Counted from the stretch's first letter, positions 7,419 to 56,029 are shown. The stretch: DNA of 64,000 nucleotides from an uncultured Gammaproteobacteria bacterium (GCA_964609895.1 CAZSTG010000005.1:6998-70997); one strand, 5' to 3'. Notes: generated from the letters alone by a model not told the origin. Numbers and translations are program-made.

Positions 7419-7419
7419 A

Positions 7420-27964: not shown

Positions 27965-28004
27965 ACGATATATCTCATTGTATCATGGAAGAACGGCTTT
28001 TTCC

Positions 28005-29477: not shown

Positions 29478-29527
29478 ACGCCCTATGGCAAATGTAGGAA
29501 TATATATAGTATATAATAGATACGCAT
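29478..29527. promoter_or_regulatory. AT-rich divergent intergenic region, putative bidirectional promoter.
   Basis: 50 nt between divergent starts (cat 29475-29477, atg 29528-29530). TATAAT lies at 29513-29518, only about 9 nt upstream of the + strand ATG, which suggests a leaderless or short-leader transcript. The opposite strand has TATATT-like boxes. Confidence 0.35.
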
Positions 29528-31930
29528 ATGGTGCGTCGTCATAAGAAGATACTGATCGCCATTCTTTTTTTCCTCATGCTTGTCGGAGGGTTGTTTTATA
29601 AAACTGCCATCCACGGACATATTCCTTTTCCGGCAGACCTTTTACTTTCAGAATACGCCCCATTTCGACACACGGAATATTTCGGCTATGCATCGGGCGC
29701 TATCCCAAGTAAAGGACAATACTTTGACGTTGTTCGGGAACTGTACCCATGGAAAACTCTTGTCATCGACGCCATACGACAAAAAACACTGCCTTTATGG
29801 AATCCGTACAGTTTTTCGGGGACACCCCTTCTTGCAAATTACCAGTCGCAGGCGTTGTATCCACTTAGCTTCCTCTATCTTATTCTGCCGCAACACATTG
29901 CATGGACTATTATGATGATGCTTCAGCTGTTTCTAGGACTTGTGTTTATGTACCTGTTTGCACGCGTGATCGGCTTATCTGCACCGGCAGGTATACTTGC
30001 TGCAGTTGCATTTAACTTATCGAGTTTTTCCGTTGTCTGGACGGAATTCAACACGGTGTGGCATACCATTCTTTGGCTTCCCCTGCTCTTATATATTGTG
30101 GAAAGGGGAATAGCTCAGAAACAATTATCCGTTAAGCAGCAGTTGGTTTTTCTTTTTGCACTTTTTTCCAGCATCACAGCGGGACATCCGCAGGACTTTA
30201 TAAACGTATTCCTGTTTTTTGGCATATACACTTTTTTCCGAGTGATCACTTGTTCCTCATGGAATTCTAAGGAAAAAGTTTCATTTCTTATAAAAACGAT
30301 CGTTCCGATTGTGTGTATTGCTTTTTTGCTTGCTTCCATACAATTATTGCCGACCATCGAGCTGTTTACACTCTCTTCGCGCGTTCCGCATGATGTAGGA
30401 CATATTCTCTCAACTATGCTTGTACAACTCTGGCAACTGCCCATGCTTGTGTATCAGGATTTCTTCGGAAACCCCGCAACAAAGACGTACACCACGCCCG
30501 ATACCTACGTCGGTAAAACTATCTCCATCGGTGTTGTTGGCTTTTTGCTTGTCCTATGGTCGCTTCTTTCCAAGATACGAAATTGGCACAAAACGTTTTT
30601 TTCCTTGGTACTTGTATGTATGCTGTGCATATCCATCAGTTCTCCGATCACATACATCCTCTACCAGTTCCCTGTTCCCATTCTTTCCACGGGAACACCG
30701 ACAAGGAATTTGTTCATTCTTATGTTTGCCTTAGCGCTGCTTGCAGGCTTTGGTCTTGAAATGGTTCGCACAAAAAAATATTCAATCAGAAAAAATTGCA
30801 TTGTCACCTGCATAACCATTGCCCTTGTCTGGACAGTGGCATATATATTGCCGTCCGCTTTTCCATTTCTTCTTCCCTCTGTTCTCAAAAAAAGTGCAGT
30901 CATCATCACCGCACTCATGGGATGTTCCCTGTGTATACTCATCGCGGCAAAACAAAAATCCGTCTTTGCCTACGCTTTTATAGCGCTTGTCTCCATAGAA
31001 CTGGGATACGGATTCATAAAATTCAACCCCTTTGTTCCGGCAGATTTTCTCTATCCGGAGAATGAAACAATCACATATCTGCAAAAAAATTCCGGCATCA
31101 ACCGCTTCTGGGGGTATGGTACCGCACGGTTTGAGTCCAATCTCAATGTACAGTATCGCCTGTTTTCCACCGACGGCACGGATCCGCTGAATATCAAATG
31201 GTACAACCAGTTTATGCAGGCATCCAAAAACGGGAAACTTACACGCGTGTTTACCAGATCAACCCGTTCTGACTCGGGACTTGCCGAAGGATACGGTCCG
31301 CGTGATCTGCCTGATAACAGATACCGGTTGCGCATCATGGATCTGACCGGCGTCAAATATGTGCTGGACAGGCCGGAAAATCCAAAAGACAATTTCACAT
31401 TTGACGCTTCCCGTTTCATGCCGGTCACGACACTCAAAAACAACTATACAGTTTTTGAAAACAAACTTGTCTATCCGCGAGCATTTTTGGTGTCGACATA
31501 CAAAACATATGCATCCTTAGAATCCTTTGAAGAACAGTTTTTTGCGGATTCGTTTAATCCGAGAACGACGCTTCTCCTGCCGGAAAAAACAGCACCGATT
31601 CCAATACGAAGTGCAGATCATGCCACGGCCATAATCAGTTCCTATAAACCGGAGGAGGTTATTATTCAGACAGAAAGTGACGCACCGCAGCTTTTGTTTC
31701 TCTCGGACGCGTATGCACCGGGATGGATTGCCACGGTTGACAACCGGAGGACGGAAGTGCTGCGTGCCGACTATGCATTCCGCGCCGTTGCTGTGCCTGA
31801 AGGATCACACACCATTCGGTTCATCTACAGACCCACCAGCGTAACATCGGGGTTCATCGGAACGTGCGTCGGTATTATTCTTCTTGGAATCTTTCTCGAA
31901 GTTGGCATCATAAAGAAAAAAAAGAAATAA
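29528..31930 (+). CDS. YfhO-family membrane protein (GT-C glycosyltransferase). Paralog 1 of 3.
   Basis: 800 aa. ELYPWKTLVIDAIRQKTLPLWNPYSFSGTPLLANYQSQALYPLSFLYLILP is the hallmark N-terminal YfhO loop. Many TM helices, a large C-terminal outside domain and a terminal TM plus KKKKK tail. Confidence 0.75.
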   Translation: MVRRHKKILIAILFFLMLVGGLFYKTAIHGHIPFPADLLLSEYAPFRHTEYFGYASGAIPSKGQYFDVVRELYPWKTLVIDAIRQKTLPLWNPYSFSGTPLLANYQSQALYPLSFLYLILPQHIAWTIMMMLQLFLGLVFMYLFARVIGLSAPAGILAAVAFNLSSFSVVWTEFNTVWHTILWLPLLLYIVERGIAQKQLSVKQQLVFLFALFSSITAGHPQDFINVFLFFGIYTFFRVITCSSWNSKEKVSFLIKTIVPIVCIAFLLASIQLLPTIELFTLSSRVPHDVGHILSTMLVQLWQLPMLVYQDFFGNPATKTYTTPDTYVGKTISIGVVGFLLVLWSLLSKIRNWHKTFFSLVLVCMLCISISSPITYILYQFPVPILSTGTPTRNLFILMFALALLAGFGLEMVRTKKYSIRKNCIVTCITIALVWTVAYILPSAFPFLLPSVLKKSAVIITALMGCSLCILIAAKQKSVFAYAFIALVSIELGYGFIKFNPFVPADFLYPENETITYLQKNSGINRFWGYGTARFESNLNVQYRLFSTDGTDPLNIKWYNQFMQASKNGKLTRVFTRSTRSDSGLAEGYGPRDLPDNRYRLRIMDLTGVKYVLDRPENPKDNFTFDASRFMPVTTLKNNYTVFENKLVYPRAFLVSTYKTYASLESFEEQFFADSFNPRTTLLLPEKTAPIPIRSADHATAIISSYKPEEVIIQTESDAPQLLFLSDAYAPGWIATVDNRRTEVLRADYAFRAVAVPEGSHTIRFIYRPTSVTSGFIGTCVGIILLGIFLEVGIIKKKKK

Positions 31931-31969
31931 TATCCCGACATACAGGATACTCTTTTTCCCCGCCTCTTT

Positions 31970-33523
31970 TTATGGAACTGTATACCCGTATGTTTTTATT
32001 CCTGCAGATACCTCATCCGTTATTCTCTGCATTATTGATTTTTTGACGTATATACAGGATGGCTTGTTGGAATTAAGCAGTTGTACATACAGATCCTTGA
32101 CATCTGCAGACAGATAACCGGATTCGACATCACCGTTTCTGCATGCACCGGCATAAAATGTCGGCGGGTACATCTGAAACATCTCGTTTCGCGCCTGCCG
32201 ATATATCGAAAATTCCGGCATAATTGATGTATACCATGAGTATTTGTACGCAGTCGGCACGCCTGCGACAAAATAAATTGGATCTTCCCACATCTCGACA
32301 AACATGGTGTCACCGGGTGCTGAAAGCAGACGTATCACTTCCCCTTTGGCAAAATAATTTCCGTACCCGTTGTTAAATTCCGTTTGGGTATCTATACGTT
32401 CATGAATATATGATGAGGGAGAAAGTATCACATACACAGTGAAAAGACCCCATACACCAAACAAAATAAAACGGATTATACGTTCTGTTTTCCCTTTGTT
32501 TGACGCAAAAACACACATCATGGTTACGGCAAGAAAAATTCCATACCAAGGGATAAGATGAAAGGCATCGTAATACAGACTTCCGACCGGAACGACACGC
32601 AAATTTGCAGCTGCAAGCAGAATACATACCGTGCCCACAAGCATAAACCGTTTGTTTCGCACCGTCTCGTAGAGGATAAATGCAAGAAACAATATTGACA
32701 GTATAAACAGAACATTCTGAAAGACATTTCCCAACCCGCTGACAACCGCAAATAACGGATACGCGATAATTTGTGCCGCTGTATCAATCGTCCATGCCTG
32801 CACTCCGACTTCCATCTGAAAATTCACGGCAATCACATTAAAAAAATATTCTTTCAACGGAAGTACCGCAAGGGTCATAGCATGCAGCAATGCAAATATC
32901 AGAATCCCTCGTATACAATCTTGATTTTTGGCCTTCCATGAAAACATCATCAATAAAGTATATGCAACGATTGCCCATGGCATAAACGGCTCACGCATCC
33001 AAAAAATAAACCACGCGCATACAGCTGCAAGCACATACTCCCAATGATACAATTCCTTTTTGTACAAAAGTGAAACAATGAGCATGGTACTGTACATCAT
33101 CGGATAGACAATCAGTCCTTCCGCAAGAAATCTGTCACCGAAAATGTAAAATTTTGTTGTTTCAAAAACTACAAGCGACGCCCATGCGGGAACGCCAAAC
33201 CGGAGAATAAGAAAAACTCCGCATATGTCTGCAAACACGAGCGCGGCAATCCGGTGAAATTTCACCAGCTCAAACAGTGTTGCGGGATCGGTACTATACT
33301 GAACAGCCGCACTTATATACGCCATGAACGGCTGATGGTTAAAAAATATCTGACTGTAGAGCTGTTTTCCCTGAAGTATAAAATCCCCTGCGCCGAAATT
33401 AAAACAGTCATCAAAACAGCCGAATGCGCCGACGCGTTTCAGGAGAAAAAATGAGATACCGGCAAAAATAATCTGATAACAGAGTATCAGAAAAATTCTT
33501 GCCGCAGGTATTTTACCTCTCAT
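31970..33523 (-). CDS. Polytopic membrane protein of unknown family.
   Basis: 517 aa with a hydrophobic N-terminal two-thirds and a C-terminal hydrophilic region. Convergent with the YfhO gene upstream. Confidence 0.45.
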   Translation of the reverse strand: MRGKIPAARIFLILCYQIIFAGISFFLLKRVGAFGCFDDCFNFGAGDFILQGKQLYSQIFFNHQPFMAYISAAVQYSTDPATLFELVKFHRIAALVFADICGVFLILRFGVPAWASLVVFETTKFYIFGDRFLAEGLIVYPMMYSTMLIVSLLYKKELYHWEYVLAAVCAWFIFWMREPFMPWAIVAYTLLMMFSWKAKNQDCIRGILIFALLHAMTLAVLPLKEYFFNVIAVNFQMEVGVQAWTIDTAAQIIAYPLFAVVSGLGNVFQNVLFILSILFLAFILYETVRNKRFMLVGTVCILLAAANLRVVPVGSLYYDAFHLIPWYGIFLAVTMMCVFASNKGKTERIIRFILFGVWGLFTVYVILSPSSYIHERIDTQTEFNNGYGNYFAKGEVIRLLSAPGDTMFVEMWEDPIYFVAGVPTAYKYSWYTSIMPEFSIYRQARNEMFQMYPPTFYAGACRNGDVESGYLSADVKDLYVQLLNSNKPSCIYVKKSIMQRITDEVSAGIKTYGYTVP

Positions 33524-33579
33524 AGTTGTCTTCTTGACCGACTGCTTCTATCATAATACATAGCGCTGTTATTTAATAT

Positions 33580-35325
33580 ATGAACCGGCTTTCGAAAAAT
33601 TCCGTCTTTCTCTTTCATCTTCTCACCATTCTCATTGTTGCGGTTCTGTGTCGTTTTCTTTTTCTGGATACCATACCGACCGGTATCACGAATGATGAGC
33701 TGGACTACGTACTCAACGCAAAATCCCTATGGATGACAGGAAAAGACATGAGTCAGCGTTGGTCGCCTTACTTTTTGACACCTCCGACAGGGACGTTCCC
33801 GATGGCGGAACTTCCTTCTGTTTTAATGGCGCCTTTTGTCGGCCCATTGCCGTTATCACTGTTTACCGCCAGATTCGGATATGCATGTATCGGTTCATTA
33901 CTGTCCATACTCCTGTATTTTCTATCCTACCGTTTATTCCGTTCACAAAAAATCAGCTTTATTGTCGGATTATGCGTTGCCGTAAATCCATGGTGTATAT
34001 TTTTCAGCAGAACGGGATTGGATGCACCTGTCGCAGTATTTTTTTATTATCTGTTCTTCTTTTTTGCTTTGTCAAAAAATTCGTTCGCATACATCCTGTC
34101 ATTCCTTTCATTTTCTGTCGCATTTTTTTCTTATATCGGCACAAAACTTATCGCTATCCCGCTTTCAGCGCTGCCTCTGATTCTGCTTCAAAGCAGGAAA
34201 AATGGCGACAAACGAAAGGCAGGACTACTTATCCTCCTCAGTGTAGGATTAACCGTATTTTTTATATACAACGCCGAGCATGCAGCGACAAAGACACGCA
34301 TGGGTGAACTCTTTTTTCCGACGAACGCGATTGTGACATCCGACGTTGATGGCGAAAGGAAGTTAAGCATACCGAGCCCAGCCACTCATCTTTTTGTAAA
34401 CAAGGTCACTTCCTATGTAAGTATTTCACTATCCAAATACCTCAACGCATTTTCTCCAAATATATTGTTTCTGAACGGAGATACCAGATCCGCATTTTCT
34501 GTGTGGACGCACGGATATTTTTATATCATTGATATATTTTTTCTCCTGTTCGGATTTGCGGTCATGTTTCACGCACACAAGAAACAACTGCTGTTTCTCC
34601 TCGGAATCATACTTCTGTCTCCGATACCGACTGTATTAAGCACAGTGGGAGTCAGCTATCCGATACGTTCATCGCTGTTGTTTCCGGCGCTCCTTCTTAT
34701 CATTGGCTATGGAATCAGTGCCTGTACCGATTACCTGAAAACTAAAAAGGTTTTCTTCCCTGTCACATTCCTTATTGTATTGGTGTACCTCTTTTCTGTT
34801 GCTCATTTTCTGTTTATCTATATCTTTAGAAATCCGGTAGCCAATTCAGAAGGCTTTGATTTCAGTTCACGGATTGTTTCCTCTTATCTATTACGAAGCG
34901 GCGCAAAAACTCCAATTACGGTATTTACAGGTTCACCAAAAACACTGTACAAACAGTATATTTTTTATGCAAACATCTATGATGCAGACACAATCTCCTC
35001 TTTGGCAGACGCTTCAAACGATACTGTTTTTTCAAGTACCACGGTGACATTCAAGGCCTGTACCCAATTTGACAGGAAAGATATATCCGGCACATATATC
35101 GTGGAGCCATCGCTTGCCTGTGAAAGCATACCAAGAAAGGATATAAAAATTGAGATTGCCCAACTCGCCGATGCCGGTACTATCTACAGAATTTATAACG
35201 ATCGACTCTGCAACGCATCACAACGTCTTCCCTATCCAAAACTGAATTCCTTACATGATGTATCTGTTGAAACATTGACAGACAGCGAATTCTGCAGCCT
35301 CTATATCACAGGAGAAAAAGAATAG
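33580..35325 (+). CDS. GT-C-like polytopic membrane protein with a C-terminal soluble domain.
   Basis: 581 aa. The first loop TNDELDYVLNAKSLWMTGKDMSQ...PFVGPLPLSLF resembles ArnT/PMT loop 1 (D-E/D...PL). About 11 TM helices, then roughly 170 aa hydrophilic. Confidence 0.45.
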   Translation: MNRLSKNSVFLFHLLTILIVAVLCRFLFLDTIPTGITNDELDYVLNAKSLWMTGKDMSQRWSPYFLTPPTGTFPMAELPSVLMAPFVGPLPLSLFTARFGYACIGSLLSILLYFLSYRLFRSQKISFIVGLCVAVNPWCIFFSRTGLDAPVAVFFYYLFFFFALSKNSFAYILSFLSFSVAFFSYIGTKLIAIPLSALPLILLQSRKNGDKRKAGLLILLSVGLTVFFIYNAEHAATKTRMGELFFPTNAIVTSDVDGERKLSIPSPATHLFVNKVTSYVSISLSKYLNAFSPNILFLNGDTRSAFSVWTHGYFYIIDIFFLLFGFAVMFHAHKKQLLFLLGIILLSPIPTVLSTVGVSYPIRSSLLFPALLLIIGYGISACTDYLKTKKVFFPVTFLIVLVYLFSVAHFLFIYIFRNPVANSEGFDFSSRIVSSYLLRSGAKTPITVFTGSPKTLYKQYIFYANIYDADTISSLADASNDTVFSSTTVTFKACTQFDRKDISGTYIVEPSLACESIPRKDIKIEIAQLADAGTIYRIYNDRLCNASQRLPYPKLNSLHDVSVETLTDSEFCSLYITGEKE

Positions 35326-35334
35326 AAAAAGTAT

Positions 35335-36243
35335 TTACAAGATCCTGTCTGACATGTTCCACAGTTTCGATTGCGTTTGACGTTTTATAACGATCAGAGG
35401 ATAACGAAGTATAGCCGACATATATCCCTGTATAAACGCCAGATCTCCCCGCAAAAGTGCCTGCAGAAGCCGTATCGGTGTCCAAAACATGTGAGATGCA
35501 AAAATGGAAAAATCGCTGAGGTTTTTCCAGATAAACGTAAACTGATTTCTGTAGGAAATCCGTAAGACATCGCGAGACGTATATTTACTTTTAATGACTC
35601 CTGACTCATGATAATGTCCGACAACGCTTTTGGGTTCAAATACAATCTTCCATCCTGCTTTCCTCGCCCTATACGACAAGTCGATATCTTCCCAATAAAA
35701 TGGGGAAAACAATGCATCCATTCCTCCGAGCATATTCCACATAGTTCTTCTGAACGCACCACTTCCTCCTGATACCCATGCCGTGTCCGTCTTATCAACT
35801 TCTCCGCGTTCATGAATATAATACCCTTTGTTCCATTTTGCTGTACCTCTTCCCCGAAGAACTGTTTTTCCATGCTCCAGACTTTTCTCAAGACACCCGA
35901 CTGCGAACACATCGCCTTCCTTAAAATGTTCAAGGAGTGGCTCCAGATATCCTTTTTCCGGTTCAACATCGGTATTTAATAGCACCACGATATCACCTGT
36001 TGCGTGTTTTACTCCGCTGTTGACGTTCACCGCAAATCCGCCCTGTTTTTTGTTGGCAACCACAATGACATCAGGAAAATTCTTTTTTATGTATTCTACT
36101 GATCCGTCAGACGACGCATCATCACACACGATAATCTCCGCCCCGTTGGATGCATCAATGGTACGGCGCAGATGTTTTTCCATGAGATACACACCATTCC
36201 AGTTTGGAATAACGACTGAAACAGTTGGTGATTTTTCACTCAT
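35335..36243 (-). CDS. Glycosyltransferase family 2.
   Basis: VSVVIPNWNGVYLMEKHL...IIVCDDASSDGS followed by LLNTDVEP. Start corrected to MSEKSPTVSVV (cat 36241-36243). Confidence 0.75.
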   Translation of the reverse strand: MSEKSPTVSVVIPNWNGVYLMEKHLRRTIDASNGAEIIVCDDASSDGSVEYIKKNFPDVIVVANKKQGGFAVNVNSGVKHATGDIVVLLNTDVEPEKGYLEPLLEHFKEGDVFAVGCLEKSLEHGKTVLRGRGTAKWNKGYYIHERGEVDKTDTAWVSGGSGAFRRTMWNMLGGMDALFSPFYWEDIDLSYRARKAGWKIVFEPKSVVGHYHESGVIKSKYTSRDVLRISYRNQFTFIWKNLSDFSIFASHMFWTPIRLLQALLRGDLAFIQGYMSAILRYPLIVIKRQTQSKLWNMSDRIL

Positions 36244-36247
36244 AGGT

Positions 36248-38506
36248 TTATCTATATTGTACCCTAACCTCATGCGTTCCGTCAGGAACAATACATCCGA
36301 AGAATATATAGTTTACCCTGACAATGTCCGTTTTTCTTTTATCGATAAACACTTCCCAGTGTGGATCCATCATGTTCCCAATGACCAAGAACCTCGCATT
36401 CTTCGATGCTGTTTGAAGTATCATTCTGTCACCTTCATAGGAGGTAATATCAACGGTATCATCAGCAAATTCTTCCCCGACGATGAACCCTTCATCTTCA
36501 AGCACTGCACTTTTCCCCGGAATAAACTCTTTTGAATACAGTCTTTTCATCACATCTTCTTTTGATTTTTCAAAAAAGAATTGTTCTGCAAAATAGACCC
36601 TTGGCACTTTGGTAACAACCGAATACAATTTTGTTGTTCCCTCTTCCCGTAAAAGCCTGACTAGTGGCGAGTTGATCGTATCCATAGAAAGAATATAATG
36701 CACGTTTAACAAAGCAAACAGTGGTGAGGTGATTGTTTTTGGCGAAATGATGCGGTTAAATCCGAACGGCGGCTTGATATTTGGTTCCCCTCGCTCCATC
36801 GCAGCGATATATTCCTCATACCGGCTTTGGTACATCGGGTCATATCCCGCGACAGATTCAATATCGTAATAACTTAAGACATTGGGAGGAATAAGTCTGT
36901 CATCTGTTGCAAGCACACGGAACGGTTTTTTTATCTGTTGCAGTTGTTCGATAATTTCGGTTTTCGGGAAAAAATATGACGTATCTGTAAATGGAGTAAA
37001 CTTCCATCCAAATCGGAGGAGCTCAAATGATAACAATAAAACTACTCCAATACACACGAACGTCCGCGCAGTTTTCCATGATGATTTCATCCATACAAGA
37101 ATGATAGAAACACAAAATATTACTCCATACAGTGCAGTCGGAAGAATAAGATTATTTTTAGCAACACTGATATTTGCAACTGGAATATATGGTTTGAGTA
37201 CGCTCAGCCAAGCTCCAAAAAGCACGATACCAACCCCAATAACTACCGTCATGCATTGCCTTTTCTTTGAGCCTTTTTGTAATTCTGAAATACCATAAGC
37301 TGCCAATATGGAAAGACTAAAATCAACAATGCTTAATAATCTTGTAGGCTGTAAGGATGAAAGAAATGGAACATGAAACACATAGGGCAACCGCGCAACA
37401 GGAGAATCTACCGCAAACAATAAACAGAGAGCAACGATTGCTCCCCAAAATACAGTTGTCTTTGATAGACCAACAATGGCAAGGATAAGACCAATAACCC
37501 CTATGTAGCCGACCAGTTCACCATAATTCCATGTTCCCCAGTAATTTAATGTTGTTGGATTTCCAAAAAAATCAGGTACTATAAACTGGATAAGATGCCG
37601 AAGTGGTATAAAAAATCCTTCAGCTTGCCACACAGCACCAATGCTTCTTGCACTTGTAAGATATAAAGAAATAAACCGAGCCCAGACAGGAAACGTTATG
37701 GCAATAATAAGAAGAGGAGTAAGAATATGCATAAGATATATCCTTTTTATGTTCATCCCCCGATGTGTCCATAACGCATAAAGACAAAAGAGCACCATGC
37801 TGTAAAAAAACACCTGTATGTGTCCTGCAAAAAATGACGAGACAACGGAGAAAATAAAAAGAAGCCTCCATAGTCCTTTTCTTTTGCCTTCATGTATTTT
37901 TTCAAACGAAAGAAGCAGAAGCGGCAGCCACAATAGTGTTGAACCAATAGTTCCCCACGTAAGCCAGGAAATTGAAAATCCTGAGAATGAAAAACACACG
38001 GCTCCTGTTACTGCGCCAAGTGACGAAACTTTTTTGTGCCGTAAAAACAGATACAGAAATATCCCTGCAAGAAGCGGTTGACTAATAATGAGAATAGTCC
38101 AAGCAACTTCAAACGGAAATACAAAAAACAAAACGTTTAAAGGATACAGTGCGCCTGATTGAATGTTTCCTAATAGTGGAACCCCGGAAAATGATGTAGC
38201 ATCCCAGAGCGGCATATGACCCGCCTTCAATGCTTCAATAACCTGTTTTCTCCATGGAATCTGCTGTCTAATTGGGTCAGTGATCAAAAAATTCTTATAC
38301 GGTACGCCGTTTTGAAACGTATGCGCATATGCGTCCCGCCATGGATGATACAGACCCACAAGATCATCAGAAGGAATGGGCAACTTTGCAAAACACACTG
38401 TTTTATAAAAAAACACAAAAACAAGAATCGCAAAACACCCAATTGTTAGAATGTCCTGATAGCGTTTGAGAAAGGATCGTACTTTGTCAATAAATGTTAC
38501 TTGCAT
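36248..38506 (-). CDS. YfhO-family membrane protein. Paralog 2 of 3.
   Basis: IRQQIPWRKQVIEALKAGHMPLWDATSFSGVPLLGNIQSGALYPLNVLFFVFP. 752 aa. The C-terminal DPHWEVFIDKRKT...PDGTHEVRVQYR module has no terminal TM. Confidence 0.7.
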   Translation of the reverse strand: MQVTFIDKVRSFLKRYQDILTIGCFAILVFVFFYKTVCFAKLPIPSDDLVGLYHPWRDAYAHTFQNGVPYKNFLITDPIRQQIPWRKQVIEALKAGHMPLWDATSFSGVPLLGNIQSGALYPLNVLFFVFPFEVAWTILIISQPLLAGIFLYLFLRHKKVSSLGAVTGAVCFSFSGFSISWLTWGTIGSTLLWLPLLLLSFEKIHEGKRKGLWRLLFIFSVVSSFFAGHIQVFFYSMVLFCLYALWTHRGMNIKRIYLMHILTPLLIIAITFPVWARFISLYLTSARSIGAVWQAEGFFIPLRHLIQFIVPDFFGNPTTLNYWGTWNYGELVGYIGVIGLILAIVGLSKTTVFWGAIVALCLLFAVDSPVARLPYVFHVPFLSSLQPTRLLSIVDFSLSILAAYGISELQKGSKKRQCMTVVIGVGIVLFGAWLSVLKPYIPVANISVAKNNLILPTALYGVIFCVSIILVWMKSSWKTARTFVCIGVVLLLSFELLRFGWKFTPFTDTSYFFPKTEIIEQLQQIKKPFRVLATDDRLIPPNVLSYYDIESVAGYDPMYQSRYEEYIAAMERGEPNIKPPFGFNRIISPKTITSPLFALLNVHYILSMDTINSPLVRLLREEGTTKLYSVVTKVPRVYFAEQFFFEKSKEDVMKRLYSKEFIPGKSAVLEDEGFIVGEEFADDTVDITSYEGDRMILQTASKNARFLVIGNMMDPHWEVFIDKRKTDIVRVNYIFFGCIVPDGTHEVRVQYR

Positions 38507-39567
38507 AAAGACTGCAAAAGCAAATCATACTGTTTATTGAATGTATCCGTCGAAAACCGTGACACTTCCTTCTTCGCTTCCGCAATGATTTTTTTGTTTG
38601 CCGAAGTTGGTTTCATCGCTTCATACGTTGCGCGCTCAAGCTCTTTTGTTGTATTCCACACATACCCAGTCTTTTTATGTATCACTATTTCCGGCTGTCC
38701 TCCTCCGTTATACACAACGGGTATACACCCACTTGCCATTGCCTCAACGGTGGTAATACCAAAGTGTTCCATATTTTTTGGATCGGTTTCCCCGAATCCT
38801 GCCGCATGCCAGTATATGGATGCATGACCATACAGTGTTTGTAATTCCCTGTAGGAACAATTCACGAAAAATTCAATGTCATATCCTTTTGCCATATTCT
38901 TTAATGATGCAACATACGCTGTATCTGTCGGAAGGCATCCGCCTGCAAGAATAAGCTTCCAACCTGTCATTTCTTTCGCCTTTTTCATTTCTATAAAAGT
39001 CTTAATCAATACATCCTGCTTTTTTGCGCTGTAGAGTGCATTAAATCTTCCAACACTCACAATAGTCTTTGTTTTTGCCTTGTTTTCAAACCCTTCAATC
39101 CCAACCGGCGGATATATGACGGACACTGGGATGGTGATACTTTTATCGAGATTGTTTTTAGTGAACTCTGAATTTACTACAACTTGCTGATAATGCGTCG
39201 CTTTCCATGGATGCATGGCAATACGGGAAAACGGCACCTGAAAATGAATAATGTTATGTCTGGCAAGTGTTGTCGGTACACTGCCGTCGCTTAGGAAAAA
39301 AATGAGGTCATACAATGACGATTCAATGAGTTTCCGAACGAGCCTACGGCTTCCAAATATGTTTGGAACCACATGCACAGTACGGACATCTAATCCAAAT
39401 CTATCAATTGCCTGCGTAATAATTGTTTTGTCATCCCAAAAAAGAGAAACATCGTGTGTTTTTGACCAGTGCTCAGCCAGTGTCAATACATACCGTTCCC
39501 CACCACCAAGAGAATCAAAATACGGGTTATAGATTCCTATCTTTAGCTTTTTCGTTTTTTTGTCCAT
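38497..39567 (-). CDS. Glycosyltransferase family 4.
   Basis: KIGIYNPYFDSLGGGERYVL at the N-terminus and GFGITTVEAMASGCIPVV (E-x7-E) at the C-terminus. Start uncertain (M1 at 39579 or M5 at 39567). Both overlap the upstream stop. Confidence 0.7.
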   Translation of the reverse strand: MDKKTKKLKIGIYNPYFDSLGGGERYVLTLAEHWSKTHDVSLFWDDKTIITQAIDRFGLDVRTVHVVPNIFGSRRLVRKLIESSLYDLIFFLSDGSVPTTLARHNIIHFQVPFSRIAMHPWKATHYQQVVVNSEFTKNNLDKSITIPVSVIYPPVGIEGFENKAKTKTIVSVGRFNALYSAKKQDVLIKTFIEMKKAKEMTGWKLILAGGCLPTDTAYVASLKNMAKGYDIEFFVNCSYRELQTLYGHASIYWHAAGFGETDPKNMEHFGITTVEAMASGCIPVVYNGGGQPEIVIHKKTGYVWNTTKELERATYEAMKPTSANKKIIAEAKKEVSRFSTDTFNKQYDLLLQSLCK

Positions 39568-41858
39568 AAAGCAATACAAACAATAACGCCACTACTTACC
39601 AATGATACTATCACCCCTACTCGAAAACCAATGGGATGATATCTATATTCTACTATGTGTTCTCCTTTTGGGACTGCTACTGCTCTAAAATCATAATCAG
39701 CTCGATACACTTTTGTTTTTTTGCCATCAATTGTTGCTTCCCACCCTGCATCATAGACATCAGACAAAAACAACAGTTTCGGCGATTCGCTTGTTGTTTT
39801 CAGCATTACTTGATTCGGGGTATATTCCGTAATCTGCACTTCGCCCGATCCGGATGTAGGCTCGATATCGGGTGTTGTTTCCAATATGAGTGAATTTCTT
39901 CTGTCAAAATCGGGAGCAAACAACCTGTCAATGATTTTTTGATCATCAGTTATTACCTCATAGGAAGATGCAAAAAAAGCTCTTGGGAAACTTTTTGTAT
40001 AGACATAGACTTCATACTGTCCGTCTTCATAGGTCTTCTGCATATCTCCATTTTCATATTGCCACACGGGAAATGCCCAGACATTCCTTCCGTCACTGAC
40101 CCGTTGCAGGATATACCGGACGCCCAAAAGTTGTAATGTCTGATCTTTGTATCTTCCATGTTTGTCAAACATCACAACAGATCTGTCACCAGAAGCTACA
40201 ATACCGCTTGATGCAGCGTTCAGAAATTCCGCGTACCGTCCCTGATACATCGCGTCATACCCTTCAATAAGCGGCAGTCGGGATGTCATACCCACTTCTC
40301 CTCCGATGTTTCCGAAAACCCTATACGTACCGATTTCCCGTTTGAGGTGTGTCAACACATTCATCTCCGGATAGACATATTTTTTCTCATCAAACGGCAT
40401 CCATTTGGACGAGAACCGGTACATATCAAACATAGTAACAACAATAAGTACAAAAACAGGGATCATATACCATTTCATTTTCTTCAAAAACCCAAGCCCC
40501 ATGGACACGAGTGCCACACTGAGAAGTGCTGTCGGCAACAGCAGATTTCTTTTTGCAATACTGTTTGCGTCATTCGTAAATGGCTCAATCACAAACATGA
40601 CAAACCATACTCCTACCAATATAAGCGCTGTTCCTGCAGCAAACAGGTAAAAACCAGACGGTTTTTTGGTTTTCCATGAGGCTATAAGCGCATCCAAACC
40701 AAATCCTGCAAGAACGGCAAGCGAACAACTGCACAGGATAATGATGCGGGAAGCGGCGCTTGTTGAAACAACCGGAAGTTTTAATGCAAACAGCAGATCA
40801 TTCAGCGGCGTCGGATAGGCAAGAAAAAGCGAAAACAACGCAAGAACCGAAAAAAACCGGATATATCCTTTCAGATTCCTGACCATTGCAAAACAGGCAA
40901 GGAGTAATGGAATAACCCCCACATAGCTTGCCCATTCAGCGTAATGCCCGAACCAGTCATTCCGTGTTACCGGATTTCCGTAGAAATCCGGAGAAAACAA
41001 GGTCACAATATATTGCCAAGGGATAACTTCTCCTTTTATAAAACTGGTGCTCCTTGTGGAGGACAGATATGATTGCAGTGTCAATATAATCTGCGGTGCC
41101 ACGACTGATATTCCAAACACAGACACGAGACCAAGAGCTATTCCTCGGGCAAAATTTCTTGTTGACAGTGTTACAAACAAGATATAAAGAAGTATTCCAC
41201 CAGCAACATACAGTGATATTTGAAAATGCCCAGACACAAAAGAAAGCGCAAGACTTGCCGCCAATAGTATGAGATACCGCCAGTTCCCTTTCTTTATGTA
41301 AACCGTCACTGCCCACAACGCGTACGGCAAACATAATGCTGCATAACCGAGAGTTCCATACGCCATCCATGTCGTCATAAATCCGCAAAACATAAACGAA
41401 ATAGCACTCAATAGAGCAGCACTCTTGGATCTTTCTAAAGACCGCATAAACACGTACATGCCCACACCTGCAAGGAGAGGTTGAAGTAAGACTAAAACAC
41501 TCCATGCATCAATAAATGAAAACAGGAAAAAAAGCACATTAAACGGCGAAAACACTGCAGATTGATAGTTGGCAGCATGCGGGGTACCCGCAAAACTATA
41601 CGGATTCCATAATGGAATTTGTGCAATTTTGAAGCTATCTATTGTAATATTTTTCCATGGAAAAATCTGGCTAATAACATCCGGCATCGCGTTGTTTTTC
41701 ACGGGCATGCCGTATGACGTATTCCATGGAGGAAAAAACGTCGCCAGATAACTGGAAGGAAACGGAACAAGACCTTTTCCAAAATACGGAAAACAGAACG
41801 CAATCCACAAGAGAACAATTGCAAAAATAGGAATAATCAAAAGCAGTTTCTTTTTCAT
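39543..41858 (-). CDS. YfhO-family membrane protein. Paralog 3 of 3.
   Basis: ISQIFPWKNITIDSFKIAQIPLWNPYSFAGTPHAANYQSAVFSPFNVLFF. C-terminal LSDVYDAGWEATIDGKKTKVYRADYDFRAVAVPKGEH plus a terminal TM. Start corrected to MKKKLLLII (cat 41856-41858). Confidence 0.7.
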   Translation of the reverse strand: MKKKLLLIIPIFAIVLLWIAFCFPYFGKGLVPFPSSYLATFFPPWNTSYGMPVKNNAMPDVISQIFPWKNITIDSFKIAQIPLWNPYSFAGTPHAANYQSAVFSPFNVLFFLFSFIDAWSVLVLLQPLLAGVGMYVFMRSLERSKSAALLSAISFMFCGFMTTWMAYGTLGYAALCLPYALWAVTVYIKKGNWRYLILLAASLALSFVSGHFQISLYVAGGILLYILFVTLSTRNFARGIALGLVSVFGISVVAPQIILTLQSYLSSTRSTSFIKGEVIPWQYIVTLFSPDFYGNPVTRNDWFGHYAEWASYVGVIPLLLACFAMVRNLKGYIRFFSVLALFSLFLAYPTPLNDLLFALKLPVVSTSAASRIIILCSCSLAVLAGFGLDALIASWKTKKPSGFYLFAAGTALILVGVWFVMFVIEPFTNDANSIAKRNLLLPTALLSVALVSMGLGFLKKMKWYMIPVFVLIVVTMFDMYRFSSKWMPFDEKKYVYPEMNVLTHLKREIGTYRVFGNIGGEVGMTSRLPLIEGYDAMYQGRYAEFLNAASSGIVASGDRSVVMFDKHGRYKDQTLQLLGVRYILQRVSDGRNVWAFPVWQYENGDMQKTYEDGQYEVYVYTKSFPRAFFASSYEVITDDQKIIDRLFAPDFDRRNSLILETTPDIEPTSGSGEVQITEYTPNQVMLKTTSESPKLLFLSDVYDAGWEATIDGKKTKVYRADYDFRAVAVPKGEHIVEYRYHPIGFRVGVIVSLVSSGVIVCIALWTKKRKS

Positions 41859-42613
41859 TTTTTTAGTTGTTTTGCTTCCTGCTTTTCCCACAGTTTTGCG
41901 TACGTAATAAACATGCTGAATGCCTGATACATACTTTCAATCCATCCAGCTGCTCCGGCCTTCCATCCGCCTTGACTAAAAAATGAATTGGTAAATGCAG
42001 TTCCCATAACACGAATAAAACGCCACCAGGACATTTTGGGGTGCCCAGCAGAGAGGCGTAATTCTGCCTCAATATCAGACCATTCATTTGTTTTTTTAAC
42101 CATTTCTACAATAGTTCTATGGGTGTTATGTTCCAAAGGCTCCTTCAATGTTCCAATTGCTCCTTGAATAACTGCATGTTCATGCAATTTTCCCTCCCAA
42201 GATACCAATGCGCTTTTTTTAATCAGCCGCACCATTTTGTCTTTTGTAGGCCAACGATGCCCTAGGTAATAATTTGTGCGCAAAATATAATACGCTGCCG
42301 CTTCACCATCTCGTATTTTCTCCACAATTTCTTTTTGTAGCGCATCTGTTATTATTTCGTCCGCATCAACATATAAAAGCCACTCACCAGTTGCTGCCTT
42401 TGCTCCAGCATCACGAAGTGCTGAAAAATATGCCCCTGGTTTTTCAACAACAACTGCATTTGCCTTTTTAGCACGTTGTACAGTCTCATCCGTTGAGCCA
42501 TTATCAACAACGATAATCTCATAAGCAAACCTGACGTGTTCAATACATGCAAGAATTCGAGCTGCTTCATTTTTGGCAATAATGATGACACTACACGTGT
42601 TTTGTTGGTTCAT
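41855..42613 (-). CDS. Glycosyltransferase family 2 (WaaE/KdtX-like).
   Basis: CSVIIIAKNEAARILACIEHVRFAYEIIVVDNGSTDET. Paralog of 20983 and 43514. Confidence 0.75.
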   Translation of the reverse strand: MNQQNTCSVIIIAKNEAARILACIEHVRFAYEIIVVDNGSTDETVQRAKKANAVVVEKPGAYFSALRDAGAKAATGEWLLYVDADEIITDALQKEIVEKIRDGEAAAYYILRTNYYLGHRWPTKDKMVRLIKKSALVSWEGKLHEHAVIQGAIGTLKEPLEHNTHRTIVEMVKKTNEWSDIEAELRLSAGHPKMSWWRFIRVMGTAFTNSFFSQGGWKAGAAGWIESMYQAFSMFITYAKLWEKQEAKQLKK

Positions 42614-43517
42614 ATTGTTTTCCAAAACGATTACACATCCAATCCATTACTGCTTTTTTCCGTATCGCCGAAGCTGTAAACAGAAAACGTATTGCTTCCC
42701 GTACAAGCGCGCATTTTGTCCTGAGGGGTGCATATCGCATACCGAGAAGTAGTCTGTTCCGAGTAAAATAGTATTCATGAATCGGGTTTCCCGGCCTGCC
42801 GGAAGATCCTGCATTTACATGCCAGACTACGGATGTCGGTGTGTACACTATTTTCCATCCCGCCCGCTTCATGCGGAGATTCCAATCCAGATCTTCAAGG
42901 TACAGAAAAAAACGGTCATCAAGCATCCCGACACGCCTGACCACCTCCGACCGTACAACCAATGAGCATCCTGTAATAAAAGGTGTTTCTTCCGCCACAT
43001 CGTATTGTCCGTGATCCACTTCGTCCACCCCCCGATGAGATGCATACATATTCTTCCAATCAACAAGACCGCCCGCATACCAAAACACCCTGCCACGTTC
43101 AGCGTCCGTATACCTGTCATGATGATATTCATGATTCGGAGCAAAATATATTTTCGATCCGGTTGCACCGACAGTCGGGTCGTCAAATGCCGAAACGAAT
43201 GACAATACGTTCGTGTCAACTATCGTATCGTTGTTCAGAAGCCAGATAAGATCGACCTTCTCCCGTAATGCGTAGCTCATACCAATATTATTCCCGCCAG
43301 TAAATCCTGCATTTGTCTTGTTTTCGATAAGTGTTATATGGGGAAATTTCTTTTTGATGATGCGCACCGAATCATTTGTTGATCCATTATCAACAACAAC
43401 GGGAAGGAGCGTGTTCCCGCCCAGCGTTACTCTGGATAGTGATTCTACACACGCTACGGTGTCGTCTTTCCCGTTCCAATTTACGATGATAACCGCAATG
43501 GTATACTTCTTTTTCAT
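42591..43517 (-). CDS. Glycosyltransferase family 2 (rhamnosyltransferase/WbbL-like).
   Basis: YTIAVIIVNWNGKDDTVACVESL...VVVDNGSTNDS...NAGFTGGNN. Start corrected to MKKKYTIAV (cat 43515-43517). Confidence 0.75.
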   Translation of the reverse strand: MKKKYTIAVIIVNWNGKDDTVACVESLSRVTLGGNTLLPVVVDNGSTNDSVRIIKKKFPHITLIENKTNAGFTGGNNIGMSYALREKVDLIWLLNNDTIVDTNVLSFVSAFDDPTVGATGSKIYFAPNHEYHHDRYTDAERGRVFWYAGGLVDWKNMYASHRGVDEVDHGQYDVAEETPFITGCSLVVRSEVVRRVGMLDDRFFLYLEDLDWNLRMKRAGWKIVYTPTSVVWHVNAGSSGRPGNPIHEYYFTRNRLLLGMRYAPLRTKCALVREAIRFLFTASAIRKKAVMDWMCNRFGKQYEPTKHV

Positions 43518-44428
43518 GTTCTCAGTGTCAGACTTTTTCTCCGTATCTTTTTGATAATGTTGGAAACGACATTCTTTGAATCCCGCATTGATGCAGTTAA
43601 TGTCCAATACGAAATTTCCTTTGCCCGTTCACGTAACTCGCCGGATACGGCATCAAGCTGAATATTGCGCTCTTCACATTTGTCCATTTCCCATTTTTTT
43701 GCAAAGGTACAAAAGGAATAGAATGCCTGAAAAAGCGCAAGCACCAACCCATGCAGTCCATCCTTAAATCCGCCCTCCGCAAAATAAATCTTAATAAAAT
43801 CAGAAATGGGAAACCGGAGCGCATCATACCAAGCAAGTTGATAGTTGCTTTCAGTTAAGGTTATTGCTTCACTTGTTGACGCTCTATCAATTTTTGCCAG
43901 ATACTGCGAAACGGACTCATAATTATAGTGAACGTACGGCTCCTCCAACTCAGCGGTTTTCCCCTCAACTTCTATATATTCGTGAATATGAACGCAGGGG
44001 AATTTCCCCTTGTTGTTCCTGAACAGCCGAAGTTGTTTGTCTGGCCACCATAATCCGTGCTGTATCCATTTTCCAAAGGAATAATTTTTTCTTTTGATCC
44101 AGAAGCCGTTTTCCTCAGGATTGGACGCAATAACTTTTTTTATTTCTCTTGCCAATTCCGTTGGTATGACCTCATCATCATCCAGATTCAATATCCAGTC
44201 CCCTGTCGCTTTGGAAAAACCAAAGTTCTTATTGGTATTGAGCATCAGTTGGTTTGGTTTGATAAATACGAGCTTGGTAAACTTTTTTGCAACTGCTGCC
44301 GTGTTGTCCGTTGACGTGTTGTCCACGACGACAATTTCATCTGCGATACCCTTCAGCGATGTTAAACACCGTTCAAGCGATACAGCCTTGTTATAAACGG
44401 AAATAACGACACTCAGTGTATGTTTCAT
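43514..44428 (-). CDS. Glycosyltransferase family 2 (WaaE/KdtX-like).
   Basis: LSVVISVYNKAVSLERCLTSLKGIADEIVVVDNTSTDNT. Start corrected to MKHTLSVV (cat 44426-44428). Confidence 0.75.
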   Translation of the reverse strand: MKHTLSVVISVYNKAVSLERCLTSLKGIADEIVVVDNTSTDNTAAVAKKFTKLVFIKPNQLMLNTNKNFGFSKATGDWILNLDDDEVIPTELAREIKKVIASNPEENGFWIKRKNYSFGKWIQHGLWWPDKQLRLFRNNKGKFPCVHIHEYIEVEGKTAELEEPYVHYNYESVSQYLAKIDRASTSEAITLTESNYQLAWYDALRFPISDFIKIYFAEGGFKDGLHGLVLALFQAFYSFCTFAKKWEMDKCEERNIQLDAVSGELRERAKEISYWTLTASMRDSKNVVSNIIKKIRRKSLTLRT

Positions 44429-44429
44429 A

Positions 44430-45875
44430 CTATTTCTCCTTTGCAACATGGACAACATCCATAATTCTTCTTTTTTCCGTCAGCCACAGAATTGCTGCAT
44501 ATAGCACAATACCTACAGCACCGATGATGATCAAACGCATCCATGTATACGGCGCAGAAGGCACCGTGACAAGATACCATCCCGATTGCACGAGGGCAGC
44601 AAAAAACGGCCATTTTACGCTGCTCATGAACGAAAAATCTGCGATCTTTTTTCCCAGCCAAACAACCAATCCCAGAGTGGAGGTCAGCAAGACCAAACTC
44701 ATTGACACCCCGTTAAACCCGAAGAAATGCACCATTGTTATTGTCAGAATCCACGTGCCTATAGTCCAAAACACCATCAAATAGAGTGTTGTCCTAATTT
44801 TGCCGACAGCGTTTAACGCATTGGTGAGTGGTGTGGAAAATCCTGCAAGAATCGATGCGACGACAAACAAAGCAAACGAAAATAGGGCAGGCTCCCATTT
44901 ACCGTATTTGGGAATCAGGGAAACGGCAGGTCCGATAAAGAACAGCAACGCCACGGAAATCGGAAACATGGTTGTAGCAAGTCCAAACAAAATTTTTTCT
45001 ATCGCGTGACCCAAATGAACTTTTGATTCCTGAAGCCGTGAGAACGCGGGGAACGTCACACGGATAACACTGTCCATAATAAGCCGTAATGGCACCTCAG
45101 CCCATTTTTTTGCCCAACCGATATACCCAACTTCTGTAAATGTTAAAATCTTACCCAGAAAAACAGTCATCAAATCGTCTTTCAGAAGCGACAAAAACGA
45201 ATTGAATTGAAACGGTACACCGAATTTGAGTAGTCGTTTTGCGACGGGCTTTGCGATACCGAAACGGATACGCCATGGAGAAACGATATACATGAGAACA
45301 AGGCCGATCAAAGCTCTTGTCAACACAGCATACGTGAAACTGGTTATGCCGAACCCCTTCCACGCCAACAACACAGCAACCGCATAAAATCCGACAGTCT
45401 CGGCAATCTGCGGAATAATCAGTGTATTAAAATTCAATTTTCTTTCCAAAAGAATGGAGGGAATGGTTTTCAGCGAAGAGAAGAAAAAAGAAACAATAAG
45501 TGCGCGGAGCAGCAGAATGCCTGCCGCATCCAGTCCATAAAATCCGGCAATATAGGGCGCGGCAATGAAAACAATGGTGCTGAGAGGCAGCACAAGCATC
45601 TGCTGAATGGTAAAGGTTGTAGACAGATCATCTTCAGACAGCTGTTCTTTTTTTTGAATCAACGCAGCCGCCAATCCCACGTCAGAGAAATACGAAAGAA
45701 ACGAAATGATTGCAGAAACCACATAATAGATACCGAATGTTGCGGGGTTCAGAAAAATCGTCAAAAGAAATGTCGAAGCAAATGCTATAATCTGCAGCAA
45801 AAACGTTCTTGAGGTCAACGCAAGAATCCCCGTCAAAGACTTTTTCTTGATGGTGGCAATATCAATTTCTTCCAT
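44430..45875 (-). CDS. Wzx-like oligosaccharide flippase (MOP superfamily).
   Basis: About 480 aa with at least 12 TM helices. ...ALIQKKEQLSEDDLSTTFTIQ is typical of Wzx N-terminal regions. Start uncertain (M29 at 45875; the track extends to 45959). Confidence 0.65.
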   Translation of the reverse strand: MEEIDIATIKKKSLTGILALTSRTFLLQIIAFASTFLLTIFLNPATFGIYYVVSAIISFLSYFSDVGLAAALIQKKEQLSEDDLSTTFTIQQMLVLPLSTIVFIAAPYIAGFYGLDAAGILLLRALIVSFFFSSLKTIPSILLERKLNFNTLIIPQIAETVGFYAVAVLLAWKGFGITSFTYAVLTRALIGLVLMYIVSPWRIRFGIAKPVAKRLLKFGVPFQFNSFLSLLKDDLMTVFLGKILTFTEVGYIGWAKKWAEVPLRLIMDSVIRVTFPAFSRLQESKVHLGHAIEKILFGLATTMFPISVALLFFIGPAVSLIPKYGKWEPALFSFALFVVASILAGFSTPLTNALNAVGKIRTTLYLMVFWTIGTWILTITMVHFFGFNGVSMSLVLLTSTLGLVVWLGKKIADFSFMSSVKWPFFAALVQSGWYLVTVPSAPYTWMRLIIIGAVGIVLYAAILWLTEKRRIMDVVHVAKEK

Positions 45876-48265: not shown

Positions 48266-48266
48266 G

Positions 48267-51357: not shown

Positions 51358-51374
51358 TATAACGGAATAAACAG

Positions 51375-56004: not shown

Positions 56005-56029
56005 ACAGTTTTCCGGTCCGTTTGACAGG

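Follow-up and report, generated by a model that had tools for sequence, protein, structure and literature searches.

YfhO-family GT-C proteins within a conserved glycan-assembly locus of a predicted Microgenomates bacterium

The three long YfhO-family proteins and their operon

The stretch of DNA considered here is 64,000 nucleotides long (GCA_964609895.1, CAZSTG010000005.1:6998-70997; deposited as an uncultured Gammaproteobacteria bacterium) and is called the window throughout; within it lie three long genes of the YfhO family of GT-C membrane glycosyltransferases (GTs), designated YfhO1, YfhO2 and YfhO3. YfhO1 (29528..31930) encodes 800 amino acids and is a lone plus-strand gene among minus-strand genes, and YfhO2 (36248..38506, 752 amino acids) and YfhO3 (39543..41858, 771 amino acids), both on the minus strand, are respectively the eleventh and ninth genes of a twelve-gene core operon. 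An earlier sequence-only reading had placed YfhO-like open reading frames (ORFs) at these positions, where they are indeed found, and all three match PF09586 (YfhO) at 99.6, 74.9 and 103.7 bits, respectively, against a gathering score of 28.5 bits. The family assignment itself is not new, because automated pipelines (NCBI, JGI) already label the orthologues "YfhO family protein". The mechanically called ORF of YfhO3 begins with GTG at 41891; however, the ATG at 41858 is taken as the correct start, because the resulting product of 771 amino acids is identical to a protein on record and equals the orthologues in length.

Hydrophobic segments number 9–14 across the three proteins, with about 13 transmembrane (TM) segments in YfhO3. 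YfhO3 is the YfhO protein that was modelled with AlphaFold2 (AF2; mean predicted local distance difference test, pLDDT, 87.3; predicted template modelling score, pTM, 0.88), and its model consists of helices at residues 2–486, a beta-rich domain at 513–740 and a terminal helix at 743–770 that would serve as a TM anchor. In a Foldseek comparison with the PDB, the 26 best matches are all GT-C enzymes, among them AftD (the best, E 4e-7), ArnT, yeast and human STT3, AglB, PglB, EmbC and DPY19, although no TM-score exceeds 0.47; because these first 26 matches are without exception GT-C, the modelled fold is that of a GT-C enzyme without a close solved relative. A search of the PDB by sequence found no homologue of YfhO3.

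Residues that are invariant in the three paralogues and 29 orthologues comprise, in YfhO3 numbering, D60, H211, R269, the D291-F-x-G-N-P motif, R371, K485 and D535. D60 stands in the context MPDVISQIFPW; in the model, the first helix to follow TM1 begins with it, and this is where the catalytic Asp of GT-C enzymes usually lies. Judged from these residues, YfhO1, YfhO2 and YfhO3 appear catalytically intact. The three proteins are mutually 28–30% identical over their full length (30% between YfhO2 and YfhO3), whereas identities within each orthogroup are 45–75% across the class; for YfhO3, orthologues of 44–76% identity occur in 80 Microgenomates genomes. Such ancient divergence, with each orthogroup separately conserved in a reduced genome, argues for non-redundant functions, and the proposal that the three copies have distinct roles fits these identities well. 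YfhO2 stops after its beta-domain (...VRVQYR*) and has no C-terminal TM anchor of the kind present in YfhO1, YfhO3 and four shorter paralogues; since the orthologue in locus L001 has 754 amino acids, the missing anchor is a conserved trait and no artefact.

The count of three YfhO-like genes is correct for the long ones but too low for the window, since four shorter YfhO-related proteins of 521–582 amino acids are encoded in addition, at 16548-18158, 21738-23396, 46589-48337 and 48267-49832 (minus strand). These are mutually 24–29% identical, end like YfhO1 and YfhO3 in a beta-rich domain followed by a TM anchor, and show a THDG/HD motif after TM1. Two of them belong to the conserved core operon: the protein of 46589..48337 (minus strand) matches PTPS_related (PF10131, 31.5 bits) and, weakly, the C-terminal part of YfhO, and that of 48267..49832 (minus strand) is 24–25% identical over its full length to the proteins starting at 16548, 21738 and 46589, its C-terminal domain being 24–26% identical to those of YfhO1 and YfhO3.

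The core genes, named by their lower coordinates, follow one another on one strand in the order 49834, 48267, 46589, 45862, 44430, 43514, 42591, 41855, YfhO3, 38497, YfhO2 and 35335, from 51516 to 35335. They overlap or are separated by gaps of at most 4 nt and are therefore regarded as one operon, composed of a Wzx, five soluble GTs, one DPM1-like GT of family 2 (GT2) and five GT-Cs. When all window proteins were compared by tblastn with 82 fetched loci (with 10 kb on either side), this order was found to be kept in approximately 60–70 species-level genomes of Gottesman-, Woese- and Levybacteria, down to 40–45% identity. Among the loci covering the respective position, the GT2 gene called GT2b lies directly upstream of YfhO3 in 68 of 78, a GT4 gene is next downstream in 71 of 76, YfhO2 is two genes downstream in 59 of 64, and the GT2 gene called GT2a follows YfhO2 in 59 of 60; in 64 of 67, YfhO3 is preceded by a DPM1-like GT2.

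The first core gene (49834..51516, minus strand) encodes a PMT_2 GT-C (PF13231, 52.9 bits), and its synteny is kept. The Wzx-type MOP flippase (44430..45959, minus strand; about 13 TM segments) matches Polysacc_synt_3 at 178 bits and, partially, the NCBIfam models of MOP flippases and O-glycosylation flippases. It is followed by two further syntenic GT2 genes on the minus strand, namely GT2d (43514..44458; PF00535), a GT2b paralogue with 31% full-length identity, and GT2c (42591..43607; Pfam Glyco_tranf_2_3), a cytoplasmic GT2 resembling rhamnosyl- and galactofuranosyltransferases, with partial NCBIfam matches to rhamnosyltransferase and GlfT1. Between YfhO3 and YfhO2 lies the GT4 gene (38497..39579, minus strand; Glycos_transf_1 and Glyco_transf_4), the true start of which is probably near 39564; its orthologue in L001 has 355 amino acids. 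A promoter scan of 27800-43800 returned fewer promoter-like sites than shuffled sequences did, and terminator-like sites in the same interval were not clearly enriched.

YfhO1 stands outside this operon and diverges from a run of PMT_2/GT87 genes. Its orthologues, 45–75% identical, are found on the same large contigs as those of YfhO3, and both its position and its opposite-strand orientation recur in L003, L083 and L084. The idea that YfhO1 is strain-variable was rejected, as it forms a conserved orthogroup that lies just beyond 10 kb in most genomes and is clear within 10 kb only in L003. The only varying part is the segment between GT2a and YfhO1 (31970..35325), the content of which differs among L001/L083, L003 and L084. 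In the window it holds a polytopic ORF of 517 amino acids without a Pfam match (31970-33523, minus strand) and a PMT_2-related ORF of 581 amino acids (33580-35325, plus strand), likewise without a Pfam match, with 23–24% identity to the PMT_2 proteins at 23402 and 25023; in relatives, the segment shows strand flips and carries other GT-C genes as well as additional YfhO paralogues of 767 and 834 amino acids. An invertible segment at 29528-35325 was also considered and rejected, since its inverted repeats are only short and at chance level, and relatives share the arrangement.

GT2 enzymes, host lineage and the remainder of the window

Two GT2 genes with PF00535 domains adjoin the long YfhO genes of the operon. 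GT2a (35335..36243, minus strand, 302 amino acids) begins 4 nt past the stop of YfhO2, directly downstream of it, and GT2b (41855..42613, minus strand, 252 amino acids), directly upstream of YfhO3, overlaps its start by 4 nt; YfhO1 has no GT2 neighbour. This arrangement had been described correctly in the sequence-only reading, and the two pairs had been interpreted as CsbB/YfhO-type two-step modules in which the neighbouring GT2 makes the polyprenyl-phosphate sugar that the YfhO protein then transfers. GT2 enzymes of the CsbB, GtrB, ArnC and DPMS types have C-terminal TM helices. No TM segment is predicted in either GT2a or GT2b, and their highest 19-residue Kyte-Doolittle averages are 1.50 and 1.36, compared with 2.26–2.68 for the proteins of 6426-7472 and 54880-56133.

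Sequence comparisons point in the same direction. The best NCBIfam matches of GT2a are MftF, EpsD and PgaC, and its PDB matches are diverse, with an archaeal mannosyltransferase and chondroitin synthase at their head; its matches to DPMS and ArnC are weak, confined to the N-terminal GT-A core, and rank behind unrelated GT2s. GT2b is closest by sequence to the flagellin glycosyltransferase GmaR (E 2e-13) and to SunS in the PDB and has no match there to DPMS, ArnC or GtrB at E ≤1e-3, whereas three other GT2s of the window have such enzymes at the top of their lists. The AF2 model of GT2b (pLDDT 92.4) is nearest in Foldseek to SunS and ThuS, soluble S-glycosyltransferases of peptides (E 2e-14, TMq 0.64), followed by TarS, RmlT, TarP and polysaccharide synthases, with GtrB in twentieth place and DPMS outside the top 50. 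When the GT2s of the window are clustered, GT2b groups with its paralogues 43514-44458 and 20983-21771, and GT2a with its paralogues 42591-43607 and 3343-4374, both outside the DPM1-like cluster formed by 45862, 52570, 54880, 10721 and 13747. Four independent tests (TM prediction, sequence matches, clustering and the GT2b model) thus agree that GT2a and GT2b are not CsbB/GtrB-type enzymes. As observations on the GT2b group, its three members share a Trp/Gly-rich C-terminal helical motif, GGWKxGxxGW...Y.F..Y.K, and an orthologue in JGI carries the name "(heptosyl)LPS beta-1,4-glucosyltransferase".

The interpretation as adjacent partners (GT2b with YfhO3, YfhO2 with GT2a) could still be maintained if the GT2s were soluble, DPM1-style enzymes that dock by C-terminal amphipathic helices on the membrane or on the GT-C. 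It would be consistent with the overlap of GT2b and YfhO3, with the occurrence of GT2b immediately before YfhO3 in no fewer than 68 of 78 loci and its persistence beside YfhO3 even in the rearranged loci L066, L072 and L082, and with the equally regular place of GT2a after YfhO2. In the model, moreover, GT2b ends with two long Trp-rich helices (196–251) that possibly lie on the membrane, and its paralogue at 20983-21771 also abuts a YfhO-related gene, 21738-23396. However, with 19 GT-C genes among approximately 52, a gene has a probability of about 0.6 of adjoining at least one GT-C; in so GT-C-rich a locus, GT2 and GT-C genes are thus expected to meet by chance, and adjacency alone is no evidence. 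The lasting adjacency of GT2 and YfhO genes is likewise explained by the conservation of the whole operon, and GT2d, a paralogue of GT2b, is not beside a GT-C. Together with the four tests, these points make the partnership of the adjoining genes improbable, and the interpretation as CsbB/YfhO modules is not retained.

Better candidates for polyprenyl-phosphate-sugar synthases are encoded elsewhere in the window. GT2e (45862..46635, minus strand), a TM-less DPM1/GtrB/ArnC-like GT2, has seven PDB matches, all of them DPMS, ArnC or GtrB, and is the best-conserved gene of the operon, with 87–90% identity in L001 and L003; from its sequence, it is likely the polyprenyl-phosphate-sugar synthase of the core operon. 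A third DPM1/GtrB/ArnC-like GT2 (52570..53328, minus strand) has DPMS, ArnC and GtrB as the top 7 of its 16 PDB matches, and for both proteins the top NCBIfam matches are PgfS, ArnC and dolichyl-P-hexose transferase. In the protein of 54880..56133 (minus strand), a DPMS-like GT2 (PF00535) is fused to a GtrA-type TM domain (PF04138, GtrA_DPMS_TM, 53 bits), and the similarity to Pyrococcus furiosus DPMS (5mlz; E 2.4e-36) extends over residues 42–370, membrane part included; this protein is predicted to be a polyprenyl-phosphate-sugar synthase with a built-in candidate flippase. The fusion is the only GtrA/GtcA-like element seen in the window, the scan of ORFs with 150 or more amino acids having revealed no free-standing GtrA. 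It belongs to a minus-strand row from 58354 to 53332 that comprises a UDP-glucose dehydrogenase, a short-chain dehydrogenase/reductase (SDR) resembling dehydratases and decarboxylases, the GT2-GtrA fusion and a PMT_2 GT-C, and that has the look of a compact glycosylation module, either Arn-like or of the three-component kind.

Close homologues of YfhO3, YfhO1 and GT2b all come from metagenome-assembled genomes (MAGs) of Microgenomates-type Patescibacteria, within the Candidate Phyla Radiation (CPR); the named sources are Candidatus Gottesmanbacteria, Woesebacteria, Levybacteria, "Microgenomates group" and "Patescibacteria group", and the nearest named genome is JBAQFJ010000001.1, a 1.02-Mb contig with 75% amino-acid identity. 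Exact look-ups of the YfhO proteins of the window gave no entry. Because of the uniform origin of its close homologues, the host is, by homology, a Microgenomates (Patescibacteria/CPR) bacterium and no Firmicute, and the Firmicutes frame in which the genes had initially been viewed does not apply. GTDB records that carry the same Microgenomates operon (L005, L006, L008 and many more) are titled "uncultured Gammaproteobacteria bacterium", and the record of L062 is titled "Candidatus Pacearchaeota archaeon" despite its Microgenomates operon; these titles look like placeholder or mis-binned labels.

A Pfam domain scan of the 52 window ORFs of at least 150 amino acids indicates a glycan-assembly locus throughout, nearly all of it on the minus strand. 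Nineteen polytopic proteins are GT-C-like by Pfam (YfhO, PTPS_related, PMT_2 or GT87) or by paralogy to such proteins, including about 12 of the PMT_2/GT87 type besides the YfhO-related ones; two more polytopic ORFs (14427-15539 and 31970-33523) have no assignment by Pfam and TM prediction. Thirteen GT2 and three GT4 genes are accompanied by two Wzx-type flippases, by nucleotide-sugar genes (rmlABCD, UDP-glucose dehydrogenase and several SDR enzymes) and by genes for a DegT aminotransferase and a hexapeptide acetyltransferase. No teichoic-acid backbone domain of the TagF, LtaS or TagD type occurs among the 52 ORFs, as had been noticed from the sequence at the outset, and a tRNA scan of the window found none.

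At one end of the window, a second Wzx-type cluster (680-21771, minus strand) contains a Wzx-like gene (11509-12768), GT4 and GT2 genes, the DegT aminotransferase and hexapeptide acetyltransferase, DPM1-like GT2s at 10721-11668 and 13747-14667, and SDRs resembling GDP-fucose synthase; the ORF 14427-15539 in this cluster, with 10 TM segments, could be a Wzy. At the other edge of the locus, next to rmlA, lies a membrane-anchored CAP/YkwD-domain protein (61777-62751, minus strand) with one N-terminal and two C-terminal TM segments and a linker that is rich in Pro, Val and Glu and not in Ser/Thr. The RmlC (dTDP-4-dehydrorhamnose 3,5-epimerase) ORF at 60282-60755 (minus strand) also shows a Polysacc_synt_C match at residues 13–110 (E 4e-7), which is probably spurious.

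Proposed pathway and alternative readings

On balance, YfhO1, YfhO2 and YfhO3 are probably parts of one large conserved cell-surface glycan locus and not three self-contained CsbB/YfhO modules. With a similar, moderate degree of confidence, they are regarded as extracytoplasmic GT-C transferases that use polyprenyl-phosphate sugars in order to finish a lineage-specific surface glycan or glycoprotein exported by Wzx. In this pathway, nucleotide sugars would be supplied by the products of rmlABCD, the UDP-glucose dehydrogenase and the SDR enzymes, the genes for which are present, and the soluble GT2 and GT4 enzymes, including GT2a and GT2b, would assemble a lipid-linked oligosaccharide on the cytoplasmic face of the membrane, from where the Wzx of the core operon would export it. 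GT2e, the protein of 52570-53328 and the GtrA-fused protein of 54880-56133 would meanwhile load polyprenyl phosphate with single sugars. From these lipid carriers, YfhO1, YfhO2, YfhO3 and the other GT-Cs would each pass one sugar, on the outer side of the membrane, to the exported glycan or to a surface protein. A part in catalysis would fall to the invariant Asp (D60 of YfhO3) with which the first extracytoplasmic helix begins. YfhO-family enzymes are reported to move sugars from undecaprenyl-phosphate (Und-P) sugars to lipoteichoic acid (LTA), wall teichoic acid (WTA) or Ser/Thr-rich protein regions (PMC8035078, PMC5836110, PMC12041528). A non-teichoic acceptor, which the sequence-only reading had favoured, is accordingly reasonable, given that enzymes of this family also O-glycosylate proteins (PMC12041528, PMC8035078).

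Several observations weigh against this pathway. A DXD motif has been reported for PgtC2 and PgfM1 (PMC12041528), whereas the invariant D60 and D291 are not part of a literal DXD, YfhO3 reading D-V-I at D60. YfhO3 matches only PgfM1 and PgfM2 in NCBIfam, over its C-terminal approximately 80 residues and at about 31 bits, these being distant members of the family. GT2e, unlike CsbB and GtrB, has no TM helix, and its activity on a lipid phosphate is deduced from sequence similarity only. The core operon encodes no priming phosphoglycosyltransferase, Wzy or ligase recognisable by Pfam, so the pathway as drawn is incomplete, and the two non-enzyme ORFs that were considered as Ser/Thr-rich acceptors (20399-20986 and 61777-62751) are not Ser/Thr-rich. 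Moreover, one or more of the GT-Cs may have another role.

Such another role is the basis of an alternative in which at least one YfhO-type GT-C acts on the exported oligosaccharide linked to undecaprenyl diphosphate (Und-PP), as a polymerase, ligase or oligosaccharyltransferase, thereby replacing Wzy, WaaL or PglB. Besides its Wzx and its five cytoplasmic GTs, the core operon includes no recognisable Wzy, WaaL/PglL (Wzy_C) or STT3, there being no Wzy_C or STT3 match in Pfam; the best NCBIfam match of its Wzx is the O-glycosylation flippase model, albeit far under the cut-off; the YfhO3 model aligns with STT3, AglB and PglB at a probability of 1.0; and five GT-Cs are present for a single DPM1-like GT2. 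However, the characterised enzymes of the YfhO family all use Und-P-monosaccharides (PMC8035078, PMC12041528), and as structural matches the oligosaccharyltransferases do not surpass ArnT and AftD, so that they reflect the common GT-C fold. A WWDXG-type oligosaccharyltransferase motif is not visible in the sequences of YfhO1, YfhO2 and YfhO3. No other gene of the operon is conserved as well as the DPM1-like GT2, which argues that monosaccharide donors linked through a single phosphate matter. This alternative is considered unlikely. The two unassigned polytopic ORFs, 14427-15539 and 31970-33523, are possible polymerases of divergent sequence.

Ordinary teichoic-acid glycosylation as in Bacillus, Staphylococcus and Listeria, with LTA or WTA as acceptors and backbone genes outside the window, is the original role of the YfhO family (PMC5836110, PMC8035078) but is very improbable here, as no TagB/D/F- or LtaS-type domain was found in 64 kb of envelope-glycan genes, the host belongs to the CPR, for which a limited literature search found no paper on YfhO or GT-C enzymes, and the operon context is a Wzx with many cytoplasmic GTs and not csbB-gtcA.

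A more far-reaching reading can be put forward only tentatively and is judged doubtful: outside the membrane, Microgenomates may use approximately 20 GT-Cs to build, and not just decorate, an envelope coat of glycopolymer or glycoprotein that is peculiar to the lineage and probably essential, with the seven YfhO-superfamily members performing most of the chain building from polyprenyl-phosphate sugars. If true, the coat would be a CPR analogue of mycobacterial arabinogalactan and lipoarabinomannan (LAM) assembly that replaces teichoic acids, and the YfhO family would acquire new polymerising or ligating roles.

CPR or Patescibacteria are ultra-small and mostly uncultured bacteria, the cell-surface chemistry of which has scarcely been charted. 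In a genome sized like the 1.02-Mb relative, 64 kb of envelope-glycan genes would amount to about 6%, and the locus is conserved and probably important in determining the cell surface of Microgenomates; it may play a part in attachment to hosts or in recognition by phages. All of its components belong to known families, and novelty is therefore limited unless new acceptors or a polymerising activity are found; nonetheless, the conserved 12-gene operon appears to be undescribed, going by the limited literature search, which turned up no paper on YfhO or GT-C enzymes in connection with Patescibacteria, CPR, Microgenomates or Gottesmanbacteria. For annotation, the lesson is that a GT2 beside a GT-C does not imply a CsbB/YfhO module. 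At the same time, a GT-C-rich conserved locus in an uncultured lineage offers a concrete target for heterologous expression.

Comparison with known systems

In the modification of lipid A with aminoarabinose by ArnC and ArnT (PDB 9bhc and 5f15), undecaprenyl phosphate is charged by a GT2 with the sugar, which a GT-C then passes on at the outer side of the membrane. The row of Ugd, SDR, GT2(GtrA) and PMT_2 genes from 58354 to 53332 resembles this arn logic; however, it contains a PMT_2 protein and not the YfhO genes, and no formyltransferase or deformylase was seen. Lipid A is not expected in the Microgenomates/CPR lineage.

A second parallel is the envelope GT-C network of mycobacteria and corynebacteria, which consists of EmbA/B/C, AftA-D, the GT87 enzymes MptA/B and PimE and is fed with polyprenyl-phosphate sugars by a Ppm1-type GT2; it is the network that the clustering of GT-C families in the window recalls most. 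The window likewise combines many GT-C types (PMT_2, GT87/MptA_B-like proteins and large ones with C-terminal domains resembling carbohydrate-binding domains) with a TM-less DPM1-like GT2, and AftD is the best structural match of YfhO3. It differs in that YfhO and PTPS_related proteins dominate, in the unrelated phylum, and in the absence from the window of any arabinose or decaprenyl pathway genes that could be seen.

In streptococci, proteins are O-glycosylated by the systems GtrB/PgtC2 and PgfS/PgfM1/PgfM2 (PMC12041528), in which YfhO GT-Cs act on a non-teichoic acceptor and a single gene cluster can hold two paralogues (PgfM1 and PgfM2). GT2e has PgfS as its best NCBIfam match, and the sole matches of YfhO3 are PgfM1 and PgfM2, although these matches are weak and partial, at about 31–44 bits against cut-offs of 500–1500. 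The present locus differs by its lack of a literal DXD, by its extra cytoplasmic GTs and its Wzx, and by the absence of a gene for a Ser/Thr-rich acceptor protein or adhesin from the window.

Finally, the three-component CsbB-GtcA-YfhO system, by which B. subtilis, S. aureus and L. monocytogenes glycosylate LTA or WTA (PMC5836110, PMC8035078), relies on the same PF09586 GT-C family, with a polytopic N-terminal domain and a large extracytoplasmic C-terminal domain, and its set of a DPMS/GtrB-like GT2, a GtrA-type domain and a YfhO GT-C is likewise found within one locus here. In contrast to that system, the host is a CPR bacterium, the GT2s adjoining the YfhO genes are soluble and not of the CsbB type, and GtrA is fused to a GT2 approximately 13 kb away. 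The YfhO genes of the window lie inside an operon of Wzx and multiple GTs, with teichoic backbone genes not nearby, and where the CsbB-GtcA-YfhO system has one YfhO gene, seven members of the YfhO superfamily are encoded in this locus.

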